Assembly: GCA_963711835.1 (NCBI GenBank)
Contig: CAVQFQ010000004.1
Coordinates: forward strand, 288,001 to 352,000
Direction of reading: 5' to 3'
DNA: 64,000 bases
Origin: an uncultured delta proteobacterium
GTDB taxonomy: Bacteria; Desulfobacterota; RBG-13-43-22
The position numbers and the translations under genes are program-made. The notes under the pieces were generated by a model. It made no database searches and was not told the origin of the DNA. It saw only the letters and a list, made by a program, of their open reading frames with translations. Positions 17,948-60,552 of this stretch are shown in pieces. The number at the start of each line of letters is the position of its first letter. The stretch's first letter is position 1.

Positions 17948-19057
17948 ATGAGCGAAATACCGAAGACCATAAAGACCTGGCAGATGGTCCAACCCACTGT
18001 TTATAACAAAGAAACCAAGGAAACCACCCCAGGTAAATTGGCCTTGGCGGAAATCCCGGTACCGGAATTAAAGCCCGGAGAAGTCCTGGTGGAAGTGGCC
18101 GGCTGCGGCGTCTGCCATACCGACCTGGGTTATTTTTATGACGGCGTCCCGACGGTTTCCAAGCCACCCTTAACCCTGGGGCACGAAATCGCCGGCACGG
18201 TGGTGGCCGGAGATCCGGCCTGGTTGGGCAAAGAGGTCATTATCCCGGCCGTAATGCCCTGCCGCCAGTGCTATCTCTGCAAAACCGGTCGAGGGAATCG
18301 CTGCCTCAACCAAAAGATGCCCGGCAACAGCATGGGTTTATACGGAGGGTTTTCCAGCCATATCCCTGTGCCGAGTATTGATCTTTGTGCGGTAAAAAAC
18401 CGGGGGACCTTCCCCCTGGCCCATCTGGCCGTCATTGCCGATGCCGGTACCACCCCTTATCAGGCGGCCAAGCGGGCCGATCTGCAGCCGGGTGACAATG
18501 TGGTCGTGATTGGGATTACCGGAGGGGTGGGACAATATATGGGCCAGATGGCCAAGGCCTTGGGCGCCCTGACGGTAATCGGTATCGGTCGTCATGAGGA
18601 AAAATTAAAACGGGCACTTAACTACGGAGCCGACTTTGTCATCAGCTCCAAGGACAAGGATGCCGGGGCTGTTTCCAAAGAATTCAGGGAGATCTGCAAA
18701 GCCAACGGTCTTCCCAATTACGGCTGGAAGATCTTTGAGGTAACCGGATCCAAGGCCGGTCAGGAAATCGGTCTGGCCCTGCTGGGTTTTATCGGCAAAT
18801 TGATTGTGGTCGGTTTCGGCATGGCCAGGACCGAGTATGCCATAGGGCGCCTGATGGCCTTCGATGCCGAGATCATCGGGACCTGGGCCTGCCTGCCCGA
18901 ATACTACCCGGCGGTTCTGGATATGGTCCTAAAGAAAAAAATCGACATCGCCCCTTTTGTCGAGACCCGGCCCATGAGCACTATCGCTGAAACCTTCGCC
19001 GAGGTCCATAAAGCCGGTTCACCGGCCAAACGGATTGTCCTGACGCCGGATTTTTAA
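17948..19057 (+). CDS. had: 6-hydroxycyclohex-1-ene-1-carbonyl-CoA dehydrogenase (Had/BamQ)
   Basis: GCGVCHTDLGYFYDGVPT..KPPLTLGHE, QKMPGN, LMAFDAEIIGTWAC; adjacent to oah. Confidence 0.9.
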   Translation: MSEIPKTIKTWQMVQPTVYNKETKETTPGKLALAEIPVPELKPGEVLVEVAGCGVCHTDLGYFYDGVPTVSKPPLTLGHEIAGTVVAGDPAWLGKEVIIPAVMPCRQCYLCKTGRGNRCLNQKMPGNSMGLYGGFSSHIPVPSIDLCAVKNRGTFPLAHLAVIADAGTTPYQAAKRADLQPGDNVVVIGITGGVGQYMGQMAKALGALTVIGIGRHEEKLKRALNYGADFVISSKDKDAGAVSKEFREICKANGLPNYGWKIFEVTGSKAGQEIGLALLGFIGKLIVVGFGMARTEYAIGRLMAFDAEIIGTWACLPEYYPAVLDMVLKKKIDIAPFVETRPMSTIAETFAEVHKAGSPAKRIVLTPDF

Positions 19058-19190
19058 TAAAAAGGATCTCAAGGGTCCAGGGGTCCAGGAAGGGGAGCGA
19101 AGAATTTTATTTCACTTGAACGCTCGAAACGCCTGACACCTTACCCCTCTTTCGCCAACAAAATAAAAATTAATTAAGGAGGTCTTTGTT

Positions 19191-20339
19191 ATGGGAATTG
19201 AGTGGATGCCGAGAGAAAACGAAGAAAAGAACCATGATCGCTATGGTTCGGAACATTGGGGGACCAACGCCCCCTGTACGGTCTATGAGAAGAGACCCTT
19301 GAAGGACCCCAAAGGGAATGTCGTCCCGGGGCTTCATGTGGCCTGGATCACGCTGAATAACCCGGCCCAGTATAACTCGTATACCACGGAAATGGTCAAG
19401 GGCGTCATCGCCGGCATGGAGAATGCTTCCACCGACCGTTCCATCGTGGCCGTTATATTTACCGGAAGCGGTGCCTTTGCCTTCTGCACCGGCGGCAATA
19501 CCAAAGAATACTCCGAGTATTACAGCCGGCGTCCTGAAGAATACGGGGCCTATATGGAGCTGTTCAACAACATGGTCGATGCCATCCTGGCCTGCAAAAA
19601 GCCGGTGATCTGCCGGGTCAACGGCATGCGGGTGGCCGGCGGGCAGGAAATCGGCATGGCCTGCGACCTGGCCATCTCTTCCGATCTGGCCATCTACGGC
19701 CAGGCCGGACCCAGGCACGGTTCGGCCCCGGACGGCGGCTCATCCGACTTTTTGCCCTGGTTTCTGTCCATGGAAGACGCCATGTGGAACTGCGTCAGTT
19801 GCGAGATGTGGAGCGCCTATAAGATGAAGGCCAAGACGCTGATCTCCAAGTGCGTCCCGGTCCTCAAGGATGAAAAAGGAAATTGGGTCCGCAATCCCCA
19901 GATCATCACCGACCAGTATGTTGTGGACGGGGAGATCGTTTACGGCGAGTTCAAGAAGGGCGAGGAATTCAAGAAGGCCCGGGAATGGGTCAACGGCAAG
20001 CTGAAAGCCAACGATTATGACTTTGCCCTGCTCGACGCCGAAGTGGACAAAGTGGTCTGGACCTTTGCCAACCTCTTTCCCGGCTGTCTGATCAAGTCCA
20101 TCGACTCCGTCCGGGCCAAGAAGAAATTCTTCTGGGATTATTCCAAGAACTATAACCGGCACTGGCTGGCGGCCAATATGATGGGCGAGGCCTTCCTGGG
20201 CTTTGGGGCCTTTAACACCAAAAAAATCACCGGGCAGGATGTCATCAACTTCATCAAATACCGCCAGAATATCGCCGAAGGCAAATTGATGGACGAGACC
20301 TTTTTCGAGGAAGTGATGGGCAAACCGCAGACCAAGTAG
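19191..20339 (+). CDS. oah: 6-oxocyclohex-1-ene-1-carbonyl-CoA hydrolase (Oah/BamA)
   Basis: LNNPAQYNSYTTEMVK, AFCTGGNTKEY, GMRVAGGQEIGMACD, QAGPRHGSAPDGG, WLAANMMGEA. Confidence 0.95.
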   Translation: MGIEWMPRENEEKNHDRYGSEHWGTNAPCTVYEKRPLKDPKGNVVPGLHVAWITLNNPAQYNSYTTEMVKGVIAGMENASTDRSIVAVIFTGSGAFAFCTGGNTKEYSEYYSRRPEEYGAYMELFNNMVDAILACKKPVICRVNGMRVAGGQEIGMACDLAISSDLAIYGQAGPRHGSAPDGGSSDFLPWFLSMEDAMWNCVSCEMWSAYKMKAKTLISKCVPVLKDEKGNWVRNPQIITDQYVVDGEIVYGEFKKGEEFKKAREWVNGKLKANDYDFALLDAEVDKVVWTFANLFPGCLIKSIDSVRAKKKFFWDYSKNYNRHWLAANMMGEAFLGFGAFNTKKITGQDVINFIKYRQNIAEGKLMDETFFEEVMGKPQTK

Positions 20340-21554: not shown

Positions 21555-22079
21555 TTATTCGGGGGTATTGTAAACGGCCAGCATGCCGTCCTTTCTTTCC
21601 AGGCTGAAACCGAAGTTCATGCCCAGCTTCCCCTTCTGGGCATTAAGATAGCCCCCCTTGTCCCCCATCTGCATGATATCGGTCTGCCAGCCTTTTTTTT
21701 TCAGCATCTCGGCGTACTGATTTATCCCGTCACCTTTAAGGTCTTTATAATAGATATTGAATTTCTGCATGCCCCCTTCGTTACCCTTGCTCACCCGCTC
21801 GATCTTGGCGAAAGGGAATGGCGGGACCTCTGGAAACATATCCGCGGGCCAAACCGTCGTTTCGGCTATCTCGCTCTTGAAATCCTTGCCTTTAAATTCT
21901 ATCTTGCCCTCCTGCATCCTCACATCCACATCTTTCCCGGTGGTTTGCTTGATCATCTTCCTGGCCATGTCCTCGGCCATCTGTTCATCCGAGCTCTTTC
22001 CGCTGCAGCCGGCCATCAGAAATAAACCCAAAACCAGAACGGCCGCCATGATCCCGATCCGACGCTTATTTATTCCCAT
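21555..22079 (-). CDS. Hypothetical lipoprotein
   Basis: Signal peptide ending in lipobox MAGC. Confidence 0.75.
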   Translation of the reverse strand: MGINKRRIGIMAAVLVLGLFLMAGCSGKSSDEQMAEDMARKMIKQTTGKDVDVRMQEGKIEFKGKDFKSEIAETTVWPADMFPEVPPFPFAKIERVSKGNEGGMQKFNIYYKDLKGDGINQYAEMLKKKGWQTDIMQMGDKGGYLNAQKGKLGMNFGFSLERKDGMLAVYNTPE

Positions 22080-22225
22080 ACCCCCTCCTTTTTGATCTCA
22101 AGTGTAATATTGCTTTAGAGCTTTTAGAGGTTTGTCATTACGGGCTTGACCATCCCGGCCCGGCCCATTTATACTTGAATCCTATTTACCCCATTTCCAT
22201 TGAACGGATCAAGGGAATTATCCTA

Positions 22226-22552
22226 ATAATGCAGTTAGCGGCCGGACGGACGGGGCAGGAATACAACCAGCGAAAGGATCGCCAGGGGGCTTACTGGGAA
22301 GATCGGTATCATGCCACGCTTGTCGAAAACGGCGACCATTTGGCCAGATGCATGGTCTATACATCGACACCAATATGGTGCGTGCCGGTGTGGTCGGCCA
22401 CCCCTCGCTGTGGCCCTTTTCCGGGTACAATGAGATCCAGGAGCGCCATAAGGCATTTTTCGTGGTCAAAAACGACCATAATAACCCCTGAAATTATTTA
22501 TTTCTGGAACGTTAAACTTGAATAATCAAGAAGTTAGCGTGGCCCGACCCCA
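22226..22552 (+). pseudogene. REP-associated tyrosine transposase (RAYT/Y1) fragment plus right terminal repeat
   Basis: MQLAAGRTGQEYNQRK.RQGAYWEDRYHAT...RCMVY/IDTNMVRAGVV.HP..WPFSGYNEIQ across a frameshift; internal deletion; ends CGTGGCCCGACCCCA (22538-22552). Confidence 0.8.
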
Positions 22553-22760
22553 CGAAACAGGACCAAGAAACAGAGTAAAACTGGGAAATAGGCAGCCGAG
22601 ACAGCCAGTATTGGCATACTACGGCAGTCATCCAGATTGACCAATCGCTGGATTGGGAGTTCTACTATGGCGCGGTTAACAAGCTTCACGTAATGAAGTA
22701 TTGATAGATGTTTATGAGTGGAATTTGCAAAAGAAAGTAATGGAGAAAAGTATGAAGAAA

Positions 22761-23059
22761 TGGGGTCGGGCCACGTGAACTCGTTGATATGGTAGAGAAA
22801 GTTATTAATTCAGCCTCTAAAATAGGTCTATATCGAGTTTTTTAGGGGCAAAAAGAGAATTTTTCAAAATAAATTATGGCCCGAGCCAAACGACATTTTA
22901 TCCCAAACCAAATCTGGCAGCAAAAGATATCAGCTTCGGGAAAGTGCCGCGGACTATAAGGCACTTTTCAAGGTCAAAAACGATGATATAGCCCCTAAAA
23001 TTACCTATTTCTGGAATGTTAAATTTGGATAATCAAGAAGTTAGCGTGGCCCAACCTCA
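22761..23059 (+). mobile_element. Internally deleted mini-RAYT element (family B)
   Basis: Left end TGGGGTCGGGCCACG; ATG 22876 MARAKRHFIPNQIW joined to C-terminal YQLRESAADYKALFKVKNDDIAPKITYFWNVK; right end CGTGGCCCAACCTCA; 3' part near-identical to ~22448-22552. Confidence 0.8.
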
Positions 23060-23121
23060 AGAAAAATTTCTCAATTTGGAAGTATTTTCAGGGCAGTTCC
23101 GACATAGGACGAACTGAGAGG

Positions 23122-23184
23122 CACTAACAACGGTTTGCACTCGGACGCGGATTAGACCCACGCCGGTGAAACCGAAAGTTCGGG
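23122..23184 (+). other. Integron attC site
   Basis: CACTAAC...CGGTTTgCACtCGG / CCGGTGAAACCG...GTTCGGG: core sites and two extrahelical bases. Confidence 0.75.
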
Positions 23185-23222
23185 TGATAGGATTCATACT
23201 TTTCATTCGGTAGAGGTTAAAG

Positions 23223-23399
23223 ATGTCTGACGAAACTAAGGGTGCTGACGATGCCGCTGTGGATAAGGGATTGGTCGCCATGTTTTTAAGAATGTCGACC
23301 GAGGAGCGATTACAGGCAAACGACAACGCTTTTCGAACGATTCTGGAGTTGAGAGATGCCTACAGGCAGCAAAAAGAGAACAAGCGCAAACCTAAGTGA
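23223..23399 (+). CDS. Small protein (58 aa) overlapping the nucleotidyltransferase gene; putative TA partner
   Basis: Manual translation MSDETKGADDAAVDKGLVAMFLRMSTEERLQANDNAFRTILELRDAYRQQKENKRKPK; GAGG RBS; below the ORF-track cutoff. Confidence 0.65.
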   Translation: MSDETKGADDAAVDKGLVAMFLRMSTEERLQANDNAFRTILELRDAYRQQKENKRKPK

Positions 23400-23898
23400 A
23401 GTACTTGAGGGGCTGTTAGAGGCCGGCGTCGATTTTATTCTGGTCGGAGGTCTTGCAGCCGTAATCCAGGGCGCCCCGGTTACGACAATGGACGTGGACA
23501 TAGTTCACAGCCGATCTCACGAAAATATAGCAAAACTCCTTGCCTTTCTTAAATCGATCAATTCAGTTCAACGTCGCTTGGACGACAAGTTGATAGAACC
23601 GAGGGAGCGCGACCTGTCGGGAAAGGGCCAGGTGCTTCTTACGACACGGCTCGGCCCGCTAGATGTATTGGCCGTTATTGAGGGAGGAAGATCCTATGAA
23701 GACCTCCTGGATCACGCCATAGAAATCGAGTTCAGGAGCCATACCCTCCGAGTGCTTGACCTGAAAACGTTAATCGAGCTCAAGAAAACTTCCAAAGATC
23801 TCAAAGACAAGCAGCGACTACCTGTGCTTAGAGAAACTCTGCGGCAACTGGAGGAGGAATATGGTCGCGAGAAGGACAAGGAAGATAACGACAACTAA
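23356..23898 (+). CDS. Nucleotidyltransferase-fold protein (putative toxin/antitoxin component)
   Basis: FILVGGLAAVIQGAP.TTMDVDIV; TRLGPLDVL; L.TLIELKK...KD. Confidence 0.75.
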   Translation: MPTGSKKRTSANLSEVLEGLLEAGVDFILVGGLAAVIQGAPVTTMDVDIVHSRSHENIAKLLAFLKSINSVQRRLDDKLIEPRERDLSGKGQVLLTTRLGPLDVLAVIEGGRSYEDLLDHAIEIEFRSHTLRVLDLKTLIELKKTSKDLKDKQRLPVLRETLRQLEEEYGREKDKEDNDN

Positions 23899-23953
23899 TA
23901 CTGCCGATCAAGGGCACTCACCAGATTGCTACTCCGCCGGCGCTTCGTGGCTG

Positions 23954-23975
23954 AAATGGGGTCGGGCCACGTGAA
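23954..23975 (+). repeat. Isolated left end of a family B (RAYT) element
   Basis: AAATGGGGTCGGGCCACGTGAA identical to 22758-22779; cuts a half attC upstream. Confidence 0.8.
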
Positions 23976-23982
23976 TTCCGGA

Positions 23983-24666
23983 ATGAAGACAATCAGGTGC
24001 TTGGTAGGCTTTACATTGTTCTTTTTAGGCGTGGTTGTCTACGCTGACATGCCGAAAGGGGCGTACCTGGAAGGAAAAGATTCAACAGTGGGAGTGATTC
24101 TGGTACACGGGCAAGGGTTGGATCCTGATTCCAACGTAGTGGGGCCTCTACGCAAATCTATCAACAAGGAGCTTGGATTTCATACGCTATCCCTTCAGAT
24201 GCCTGTTGTATCCGGAGCGAAATCACCGGATAAATTCTTGGAATACGTCTCGACGTTTCCCGAAGCCTACAAGACCATCCAGGCAGGGATTGACTTCCTC
24301 AAGAAGGAAAAAGGAGTCGAGCGCATCTATCTAATGGGCTACAGTATGGGCGGGAGGATGACCACTGGTTTTCTTGCACAGACCCCCGATAGCGGGATCA
24401 TTGGCTATATCGGCGTCGGATTGTTGGGTGGAGGCCAAGAGCCACTGAATACCAATTTGAATCTCAAAAGCATAAAGCTGCCCGTGATTGATATCCACGC
24501 CGACAGTGGTCCTGACGCAAAGAGCGCCGCGTTCAGAAAGCCCTTCGTCTCCGACCGATATACACAAGTGATCATCTCTGGGGCTAAACATGACTATCGC
24601 GGCTATGACAACGAGGTTGCCACAGCAGTAATCGCTTGGCTGAAACAACAAGAATCGGCCAAATGA
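23983..24666 (+). CDS. Secreted alpha/beta hydrolase-fold protein (DUF3530-like)
   Basis: Signal peptide, ILVHGQG, GYSMG nucleophile elbow, GAKHDY. Confidence 0.75.
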   Translation: MKTIRCLVGFTLFFLGVVVYADMPKGAYLEGKDSTVGVILVHGQGLDPDSNVVGPLRKSINKELGFHTLSLQMPVVSGAKSPDKFLEYVSTFPEAYKTIQAGIDFLKKEKGVERIYLMGYSMGGRMTTGFLAQTPDSGIIGYIGVGLLGGGQEPLNTNLNLKSIKLPVIDIHADSGPDAKSAAFRKPFVSDRYTQVIISGAKHDYRGYDNEVATAVIAWLKQQESAK

Positions 24667-24720
24667 AGGCCGCGCCAAAAAGCTGCGTGCCGCGGGTCAA
24701 CGCCGCATTAGGAGGGATCT

Positions 24721-25274: not shown

Positions 25275-25364
25275 GCCAAACTAGTCCGTCAACCGGGCAC
25301 CAAAATGCTGCGCATTTTGGTGCCCTCCGCTGCGCTTCGGCGCCGGTTACGTCCAACGTTCGGC
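25275..25364 (+). other. Integron attC site
   Basis: GCCAAAC...GTCAACCGG-GCACCAAAATGCTGCGCATTTTGGTGC-...CCGGTTAC...GTTCGGC; nested palindromic core. Confidence 0.75.
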
Positions 25365-59766: not shown

Positions 59767-59829
59767 ACCTAACGAGCGCGTCCAGCCAATCGCCGAAAAA
59801 ACCGGCTCTGGCTGACGCCCGTGTTGCGC
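59767..59829 (+). other. Integron attC site
   Basis: ACCTAAC...GCGTcCAGCCA / TGGCTGACGC...GTTGCGC. Confidence 0.75.
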
Positions 59830-59855
59830 GTTGAATAGCCAACCAATAATAACGC

Positions 59856-59884
59856 TTGACAATAATAACGTCTCCCGTTAACAT
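59856..59884 (+). promoter_or_regulatory. higBA sigma70 promoter with operator; probably leaderless mRNA
   Basis: TTGACA-17-TAACAT; inverted repeat TAACG-N5-CGTTA in the spacer; ATG 6 nt after the -10 with no RBS. Confidence 0.7.
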
Positions 59885-59890
59885 CTATTC

Positions 59891-60172
59891 ATGCTAAAGA
59901 GCTTTCGTTGCAAAGAAACTGAGAAGGTCTTTCTACGGCAACGGTCAACTCGATTCCCTACTAATGTTTACCGCATCGCTCTACGGAAGCTACTCTTGCT
60001 TGATGCCGCGGAGAAATTGGAAGACTTACGTATTCCACCAGGGAATCGCTTGGAGAAACTTACAGGCAATCGCCAAGGGCAACATAGCATTCGCATCAAT
60101 GACCAGTGGCGTATCTGTTTTCGCTGGTCAGAGGGGGATGCCTATGAAGTTGAAATCGTAGATTACCATTAG
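59891..60172 (+). CDS. higB: HigB/RelE-family toxin
   Basis: MLKSFRCKETEK, DLRIPPGNRLEKL.G.R.GQHSIRINDQWRICF, VEIVDYH. Confidence 0.92.
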   Translation: MLKSFRCKETEKVFLRQRSTRFPTNVYRIALRKLLLLDAAEKLEDLRIPPGNRLEKLTGNRQGQHSIRINDQWRICFRWSEGDAYEVEIVDYH

Positions 60173-60184
60173 GAGGTCATCACT

Positions 60185-60493
60185 ATGAAGACAAAAATAC
60201 TCGCGCCTATCCACCCAGGTGAAATTCTTATGGAAGAATTTTTGAAACCGCTGGGGATCAGTCAGTATAAATTGGCTAAAAACATCAATGTCCCAGCCCG
60301 TCGTATAAACGAGATCGTTCATGGCAAACGTTCCATTAGTGCCGATACGGCTTTGAGGCTATCTCGTTATTTTAACCTTTCAGAACGGTTTTGGTTGAAC
60401 CTCCAGGCACGATACGATCTAGAGATGGAAAAGGACAAATTTAAGGGGCGCATCGAATCTGAGGTAAAAGTACTTGAACTGCAAAGCGCCTAA
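60185..60493 (+). CDS. higA: HigA antitoxin
   Basis: PIHPGEILMEEFLKP, RRINEIVHGKRSISADTALRL, FWLNLQ.RYDL. Confidence 0.92.
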   Translation: MKTKILAPIHPGEILMEEFLKPLGISQYKLAKNINVPARRINEIVHGKRSISADTALRLSRYFNLSERFWLNLQARYDLEMEKDKFKGRIESEVKVLELQSA

Positions 60494-60552
60494 CGAGTCG
60501 CTCAAGAGGAATGCGGCAAAAAGCCGCCGCTCCCCTTAGCCTTGTCTTATAT
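60488..60552 (+). other. Integron attC site (right core mutated)
   Basis: GCCTAAC contains the higA stop codon; GCTcAAGAGGA...TCCCCTTAGC stem; CTTATAT in place of GTTRRRY. Confidence 0.65.

Follow-up and report, generated by a model that had tools for sequence, protein, structure and literature searches.

To our knowledge, neither a substrate nor a mechanism is known for TnpA-Y1 enzymes of subclass 2.1. As described in the relevant passages of Quentin et al. (2018, PMC6006769), these enzymes are without REP, occur in about 15% of strains, carry the class-2 signature Y---NP with an HTH or DnaA-C domain in 2.1.2, and are equated with TIRYT. The corresponding passages of Di Nocera, De Gregorio and Rocco (2013, PMC3733652) define the TIRtron/TIRYT type as a RAYT-like Y1 gene between terminal inverted repeats (TIRs) instead of REPs, with a GGGGWSAS motif common to some TIRs only; neither 'target site' nor 'TSD' is used anywhere in that paper. 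For TnpA-REP, the sections concerned in Ton-Hoang et al. (2012, PMC3333891) report that single-stranded DNA is nicked away from the bound site and that the 5' end, held on the tyrosine, is transferred to a 3'-OH, and they propose nick-extend-rejoin for BIME amplification. Passages of Ngan et al. (2024, PMC11708052) place the ends of IS elements at rearrangement joints without duplication and propose insertion into existing breaks, HUH enzymes included; missing duplications, adjacent deletions and insertion into breaks are accordingly known in print for IS elements. Clustering of attC sites with IS200/605 elements has been noted and left as speculation in a passage of PMC7923331. A literature search that had most subscription journals outside its scope returned no publication dealing with RAYT, integron and attC together, and found the term TIRYT in just two relevant ones.

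We analysed a locus within a stretch of 64,000 nucleotides (contig C4, positions 288001-352000, of genome G000), the whole of which is called the window here. We lean towards a joint reading in which a TIR-flanked Y1 (HUH) transposase element has left piled-up remnants in an integrase-less cassette row, and in which the element's enzyme made the junctions of the locus by nicking a few bases outside an element end and re-joining the tip to the 3' end of other DNA. Being dead, the locus contributes natural alleles and not a new system. In the features listed below, tip denotes the few nucleotides directly outside an element end, stutter a 7-mer repeated at the tip, and X1 and X2 two public sequencing runs.

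21555..22079, minus strand: host gene of 174 aa with a weak PepSY_2 match; fixed left flank of the locus, common to runs X1 and X2
22229..22521, plus strand: dead remnant of a Y1/HUH transposase that retains residues 78-148 (frameshifted) and 243-263 but neither the left end nor the HUH motif
22445..22552, plus strand: right end 1, a long imperfect TIR with its 15-nt core at 22538-22552
22553..22587, plus strand: tip of right end 1 and worn stutter; first 5 nt also in the X2 allele, then divergence
22588..22704, plus strand: 3' end of an Avs3a-like anti-phage gene, 38 codons with the stop, 79-84% identity (coding match 22588-22701)
22705..22760, plus strand: 56 nt of DNA with a worn stutter and the GAAA tip of left end 2
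22761..23059, plus strand: mini-element of 299 bp, left end and codons 1-15 fused to codons 231-263 and right end 2
23060..23121, plus strand: probable 3' remnant of a gene cassette, judged from sequence (21 codons); open frames stop at or in the attC core
23122..23184, plus strand: complete attC (fold z = -3.6; covariance-model seed), crossover G at 23178
23223..23898, plus strand: two overlapping ORFs, of 58 aa and 180 aa, nucleotidyltransferase-like
23893..23952, plus strand: attC-like 5' arm without 3' arm, a candidate half-attC by position and core motif
23953..23978, plus strand: left end 3, tip and 22 nt of TIR; three tip variants across three strains
23983..24666, plus strand: gene for an alpha/beta-hydrolase (DUF3530-like), joined 5 nt downstream of left end 3; a contig of run X1 crosses this junction
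24680..24712, plus strand: attC-like repeat, 3' arm only; longer copies on contigs C10 and C12
24721..25870, plus strand: remaining cassette row, with a Cache-domain gene, an attC at 25275-25364 and a cupin gene
22538-22552 (minus), 22761-22775 (plus), 23045-23059 (minus, two mismatches) and 23957-23971 (plus): 15-mer end motif

Within two mismatches, the 15-mer end motif occurs at these four positions only, where 0.28 occurrences in the window would be expected by chance. The original prediction proved right on the four ends, which lie at the coordinates first given, and likewise on the dead Y1 fragment, on the 299-bp mini-element and on the attC. The GAAA that had been reported directly before both left ends was seen as well, together with an NGAAA directly after both right ends that had been missed. 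Right ends 1 and 2 are 86% identical over 105 nt, and left ends 2 and 3 have 23 nt in common, including the GAAA outside the motif; no exact repeat at the locus exceeds 23 nt. The seven bases after left end 3 (window 23978-23985) equal the tip behind a right end elsewhere in the genome that carries the locus (G000:C8:122262-122270). Left end 3 may represent the remainder of a complete element that has shrunk to 22 nt and a right tip, and a chance match is also conceivable. Solo left ends of varying length are found at G000:C17:51109-52355, 496236-496357 and 620091-626429, at C6:59335 and at C5:190070-190225, often just 3' of a stop codon and 5' of small toxin-antitoxin-like or accessory genes; they outnumber solo right ends and may supply a putative promoter.

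Relatives were collected with a 234-aa query, which gave at least 605 related stretches among 610 candidates, and the best 80 loci were retained. Intact ORFs of 253-282 aa were present in 66 of these best 80 loci, with sources mostly in Desulfobacterota, and both ends were found in 55 of the 80 (loci with enough flank). All 61 aligned relatives have H60, H62 and Y121, and all 61 proteins contain PF01797 (Y1_Tnp) with no other Pfam domain and no DnaA-C or HTH. The tyrosine motif reads Y-x-x-x-N-M in most of the 66 intact ORFs, with M126 nearly invariant, and a conserved C-terminal extension is present. E. coli TnpA-REP (4ER8; 23% identical) was the top match both by sequence (E 0.0046) and by fold (E 7e-8). 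The end core, GGGGTCGG, lies in an imperfect repeat of about 110 nt and has one mismatch to the published GGGGWSAS, fitting seven of its eight positions; the seventh position of the end motif is G in 127 of 133 ends. A GTAG tag is absent from the end consensus, and left end 2 does not fold (z = 1.0).

The label RAYT given in the original prediction did not hold, since the element ends are the terminal inverted repeats of TIRYT, without GTAG-REP. Assignment to REPtron/RAYT (TnpA-REP) was rejected, there being no GTAG-tagged REP hairpins and the 234-aa relative scoring 67.6 against NF047646, below the cut-off of 80. IS200/IS605 was likewise rejected in view of the long TIRs and an NF033573 score of 22 against a cut-off of 55. 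The window element is of the TIRtron/TIRYT type, its own copy being a fragment without the HUH motif. By their sequences the relatives would be TnpA-Y1 subclass 2.1.1-like at best, an assignment made outside the authors' own tree and profiles.

Residues of the window copies are numbered after the intact relative in locus L014. PF01797 matches in G000, which is 89% complete, numbered 13, and none of them was an intact gene of the window subfamily; several intact TIR-flanked Y1 genes of other subfamilies are present. Because no intact copy of the window subfamily was found in G000, the enzyme would have acted earlier or in trans. The search for an intact transposase suggested with the original prediction yielded none of the window subfamily in this genome; among the relatives, HUH and tyrosine are intact. 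As to the mini-element, AGAAA stands on both of its sides and a true 5-nt duplication is possible. Simple insertion with such a duplication into one gene was rejected, as the left frame is the tip of Avs3a and stops at 22702; removing the mini-element in silico gives an open frame that ends in the attC core. Elsewhere in G000, a 304-codon open frame (C18:32719-33633) has two tandem Y1 domains, and an intact TIR-flanked Y1 gene of another subfamily (C5:297795-299072, locus L133) adjoins a C-terminal integron-integrase-like fragment that stops at the TIR.

The 208-bp spacer between right end 1 and left end 2 had been described as coding-like and unrelated to the element, which was borne out and can be made more specific: it holds the last 38 codons of Avs3a. 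Its 41-codon frame had four relatives among five candidates, at 81-84% identity and with the same C-terminus in all. The longest of these is the C-terminal third of Avs3a (PADLOC E 2e-70; NCBIfam E 1e-83), and one relative sits in a 2155-aa frame. The rest of Avs3a was not found in G000 (89% complete), where the query matched 22588-22701 only. A PADLOC Avs3a search of G000 also gave no match, but its controls were silent too, and the query-based search is the better test. Short repeated words that resemble worn stutters flank the Avs3a scrap on either side.

In the 897-bp spacer, the larger ORF of the two-gene cassette gave weak nucleotidyltransferase matches below the cut-off, and 23223..23898 is likely to be a toxin-antitoxin-type cassette. 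The candidate half-attC at 23893..23952 was not detected by the covariance model and does not fold (z = 0.5). No full copy of it was present in viral contigs (one match, inside coding sequence), in 300 other genomes of the phylum, in plasmids or in the sequences gathered for the present analysis. That the spacer starts mid-gene, as first described, fits a stop codon directly ahead of or within the attC core; that it ends mid-attC is a tentative reading from position and core motif. Two complete attC sites lie between co-oriented genes in the window, the one at 25275-25364 folding at z = -3.9, and both were seeds of the home-made covariance model. For a full integron integrase, TIGR02249 gave seven matches in G000 (89% complete), none over the cut-off and none at the window locus.

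Several further arrangements of attC-like repeats were noted. The lone 3' arm of one repeat family occurs at window 24680-24712, L122:6850-6884, L124:7224-7253 and L009:2082-2144, fused to the end of the hydrolase gene in the window and to element sequence in the three other genomes. The breakpoints, 55-60 positions into a repeat of about 93, lie directly beyond the loop of the hairpin, a possible preferred joining point. At G000:C10:46415-46510, an attC-like repeat has the end of another TIR type, together with a short tip, joined into its 5' part. Two weaker attC-like matches in the window (59767-59829 and 60488-60552), 0.7 kb from each other and in one orientation, suggest that another small cassette row lies at 59767-60552. 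Two long ORFs at window 17948-20339 appear to resemble ring-cleavage genes of the benzoyl-CoA pathway, which may point to an aromatic-degrading anaerobe.

We then turned to the junctions of the relatives. Of the 133 ends for which sufficient flanking sequence was available, 63 carry stutters; at seven control offsets the figure is 1-9 of 122-133. The stutter units start in a cluster 7-12 nt before the anchor G, and 54 of the 63 end in or beyond the terminal Gs. Direct repeats between the flanks of 55 two-ended elements followed the shuffled distribution, and none reached 5 nt. After three overlapping loci had been left out, 27 end pairs were near-identical over the 45 inner bases. Twenty-two of these share 6-13 nt outward from the anchor, three of which are the terminal Gs, while the remaining five share at most 4 nt and none shares more than 13. 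A tip of 3-10 nt travels with each end. The complete chromosome of Desulfosarcina alkanivorans shows this arrangement in an isolate: two copies separated by 13 kb do not differ over 945 nt, both tips included, and have different flanks and no duplication. One of these copies cuts a cassette ORF after 44 codons, and beyond it the sequence resumes just before an attC-like arm (by eye). On the same chromosome, one and the same tip is found on left ends that adjoin five different points, of which three lie within transposase genes.

Stop-free frames of at least 60 codons reach the tip at 77 of 123 ends. Pfam matches were obtained for 18 of 111 flank frames, with the domain cut at the tip in eight (six foreign genes and two of the element's own). 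For none of ten cut or probably cut genes was the missing half found across the element: of the 17 further far-side frames scanned for them, none continues the gene and five match other families, one of them being a second cut gene. The claim that ends are joined to mid-gene breaks whose flanks do not rejoin was thus upheld, with the Avs3a tip having its own stop and no continuation in the ten cut genes. Joins of half-attC sites at element junctions gave three cross-matches among 354 junction segments and none among 600 controls, too few to claim. At L114:6008-9050 (D. alkanivorans), a longer non-coding element starting with the same TIR is present in three copies of one direction; each copy has its own stutter, and the copies stand between toxin-antitoxin-like gene pairs, which they separate at a spacing of 1.2-1.4 kb. 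The right ends of L049 and L052, from one genome, have a common tip and distal flank, one with about 18 extra bases at the tip boundary that may be a small insertion at the inferred nick.

Proximity to attC was examined with a covariance model of 11 hand-picked sites (two from the window, seven from relatives' loci), which replaced a first detector that was insensitive (nine calls in 7 of 80 loci) and noisy. The model gave 52 matches in 23 of the best 80 loci, 51 of them on the transposase strand (45 of 45 without seeds). Co-orientation is less strong for flanking ORFs (304 against 120), and 54 of 70 loci show positive GC skew, so a common direction of replication or transcription explains part of the attC co-orientation. 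An attC lay within 1.5 kb in 19 of 80 element loci (17 without seeds) and in none of 30 IS200/605 loci (Fisher p = 0.0015), a comparison limited by the dependence among kin and by a control set in which two genomes supply 20 of the 30 loci. In G000, the 2.4% of sequence no more than 4 kb from an end accounts for 10 of 17 attC matches, every one co-oriented; none of six DDE, IS110 and rve loci lies within 3.5 kb of an attC match, a number too small to weigh. The association is weaker across 11 family genomes with complete lists, where 5 of 53 attC matches are within 5 kb of a TIR core (by eye). Among the 14 closest junctions listed, an ORF or attC-like arm runs into the tip in nine (by eye), as in the window. 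IS1111-attC elements are known for attC-specific targeting. Such targeting was rejected here, given joints at varied points and 57 of 80 loci without an attC match.

Alleles were compared on contigs (not reads) of four of 13 listed runs, X1 and X2 in detail, and no public run covers half of the stretch. The X2 contig of 2178 nt contains the host flank, the transposase remnant, right end 1 with 5 nt of tip and 927 other bases, and continues with 23178-23957, the tip once more and a degenerate left end. One X1 contig, of 1456 nt, passes from right end 1 through 1112 other bases into 23178-23454; a second covers the end of the cassette, left end 3 and the hydrolase but lacks 5 nt at 23949; a third has the host flank joined at 22213 to a left end (short side 32 letters). 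The locus is present in other strains, and the DNA behind right end 1 has turned over: both alleles keep nothing of 22558-23177, the attC beside the common cassette included, and the tip of left end 3 is different in all three strains. Both regain identity at 23178, the G of the attC crossover, which indicates that integrase-type exchange also took part. Runs X3 and X4 gave scattered pieces only, and X3-X9 cover small shares of the stretch; two exact-pattern scans of metagenome contigs gave no match to further alleles, and 20 family genomes contained no orthologous locus. Support for the predicted junctions is accordingly divided: the joint of candidate half-attC, left end 3 and hydrolase recurs in an independent run, whereas no contig from another run reaches across those at the Avs3a scrap and at the mini-element.

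If tips were re-joined as proposed, the nick would leave the tip 5'-phosphotyrosine-linked, by analogy with the TnpA-REP chemistry in the passages of PMC3333891, and with inverted ends each tip would be the 5' end of one strand. The free 3'-OH could be extended by a few bases and then re-joined, giving a stutter with fixed start and variable end; use of a distant 3'-OH would give an insertion accompanied by loss, a deletion next to the element, or the carrying along of former flank DNA. Flank carriage would account for the Avs3a scrap, and tip-rejoining for both joints of the scrap and for the turnover of tips. IntI, of which only fragments are left in G000, would have moved whole cassettes separately, and the shared direction of element and cassettes would reflect a dependence of both on single-stranded DNA at the fork or on transcription direction. 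Tip-rejoining is favoured by fold and motifs, stutters, travelling tips, the two identical copies and the variously joined left ends in D. alkanivorans, missing duplication, the ten cut genes without continuation across the element, and the three alleles with three tip variants. Against it, the chemistry is borrowed from a protein of 23% identity and every catalytic step is inferred; 70 of 133 ends have no stutter, 5 of 27 pairs share at most 4 nt, AGAAA may be a duplication at the mini-element, and with Pfam matches in 18 of 111 flank frames most junctions are unclassified. Furthermore, many solo left ends precede foreign DNA, and the inner joint of left end 3, after 22 nt of TIR, is a gene start and not another tip. 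This joint and the internal deletions lie outside the model, so host repair or further nicks are needed.

Other explanations have to be weighed against tip-rejoining. That the locus is a chimeric assembly at short repeats in a metagenome-assembled genome is very improbable, even with a genome contamination of 6.4%, no run covering half of the stretch and no contig across the Avs3a-scrap or mini-element joints: independent contigs show host flank, right end 1 and cassette in succession, and likewise half-attC, left end 3 and hydrolase, exact repeats are at most 23 nt, worn stutters stand at both spacer ends, and the same junction types occur in a complete isolate chromosome. We regard as unlikely that ordinary insertions into a pre-existing defence or cassette island were followed by host-mediated (microhomology or repair) deletions up to the ends, with no particular role for the tips and nothing brought in. 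Adjacent deletions and missing duplications are known for many IS elements (passages of PMC11708052), both window copies carry internal deletions that end-nicking leaves unexplained, 2-4 nt microhomologies stand at some inner joints, and the cassette row continues on both sides of the element in several relatives; yet host deletion predicts neither fixed-start stutters nor travelling tips nor one tip remodelled in three strains, and the X1 and X2 alleles, which keep nothing of 22558-23177, are not simple trims of the window allele.

A dedicated acquisition array, in which the ends are reiterated sites that add foreign fragments successively without IntI, seems still more doubtful. Different DNA follows the same right-end tip in three strains, no parent of the Avs3a scrap was found in G000, relatives have same-direction end clusters, and attC rows are enriched and co-oriented near the element. 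However, identity between the alleles resumes at the crossover base of attC, the 'repeats' differ from one another (86% identity between the right ends, divergence after 22 nt between the left ends), and the captured pieces are gene scraps with neither acquisition order nor benefit shown; in addition, 5 of 53 attC matches in 11 family genomes lie within 5 kb of a TIR core, and 57 of 80 elements have no attC nearby. A CRISPR-like array was rejected, as the ends alternate left and right, are diverged and differ in length, and the spacers measure 208 and 897 nt. Ligation of ends to broken DNA thus survives from the original prediction, while its IntI-independent repeat-spacer array does not fit the rejoining at the crossover and the four ends that are not one repeat; nor does anything set an outside origin of the pieces apart from leftovers of a larger island. 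The locus is likely a scar pile where tip-joining and integrase activity both acted. It is rather unlikely, in our estimate, that TIRtron ends act as sticky tips, activated by the enzyme and ligated to nearly any DNA that is broken or single-stranded, with the elements grafting and reshuffling cassettes independently of IntI, homing on integron rows in one orientation, cutting cassettes and attC arms and pulling in outside fragments such as the Avs3a scrap.

The preferred reading, tip-rejoining at the ends, predicts from the junctions a nick 3-10 nt outside the terminal Gs, with the tip kept and joined to a 3'-OH. If true, it would provide a second route beside IntI for cutting and rebuilding cassette rows and defence islands, would explain many orphan CALINs and gene scraps, and would make a sequence-tolerant single-strand joining enzyme a possible tool.

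Compared with known systems, the elements resemble IS200/IS605 in having no target duplication (55 elements match shuffled flanks). Co-oriented small genes with attC, and alleles that differ at the G|TT crossover, are shared with integrons and CALINs, whereas here there is no full intI and the element joints lie inside cassettes and attC arms, not at the crossover. Rolling-circle capture by IS91/ISCR is one-ended. The present elements differ from it in having a Y1 enzyme and two similar inverted ends with the same junction pattern at both; an HUH enzyme near integrons that is able to carry flank DNA is the common feature (passages of PMC7923331). In IS adjacent deletion, the passages of PMC11708052 treat loss of the duplication as an exception for DDE elements, whereas here it is the rule and the tips stutter. 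E. coli TnpA-REP/BIME agrees in fold (4ER8), and its nick-extend-rejoin model, in the sections concerned, fits the stutters seen here; it differs in the GTAG hairpin, absent here, and REPtrons are said not to move as a unit (PMC3333891), unlike the identical whole element copies in D. alkanivorans. Subclass 2.1, in the passages of PMC6006769, is similar in the absence of REP, the long protein (253-282 aa) and the conserved C-terminal extension, and different in that the tyrosine motif here has NM instead of NP and there is no DnaA-C or HTH. The closest match is with TIRtron/TIRYT, through the Y1 gene with TIRs, the G-rich end motif and the solo and clustered TIRs; the tips, stutters, mid-gene joins and attC co-orientation are features seen here that the corresponding passages of PMC3733652 do not contain.
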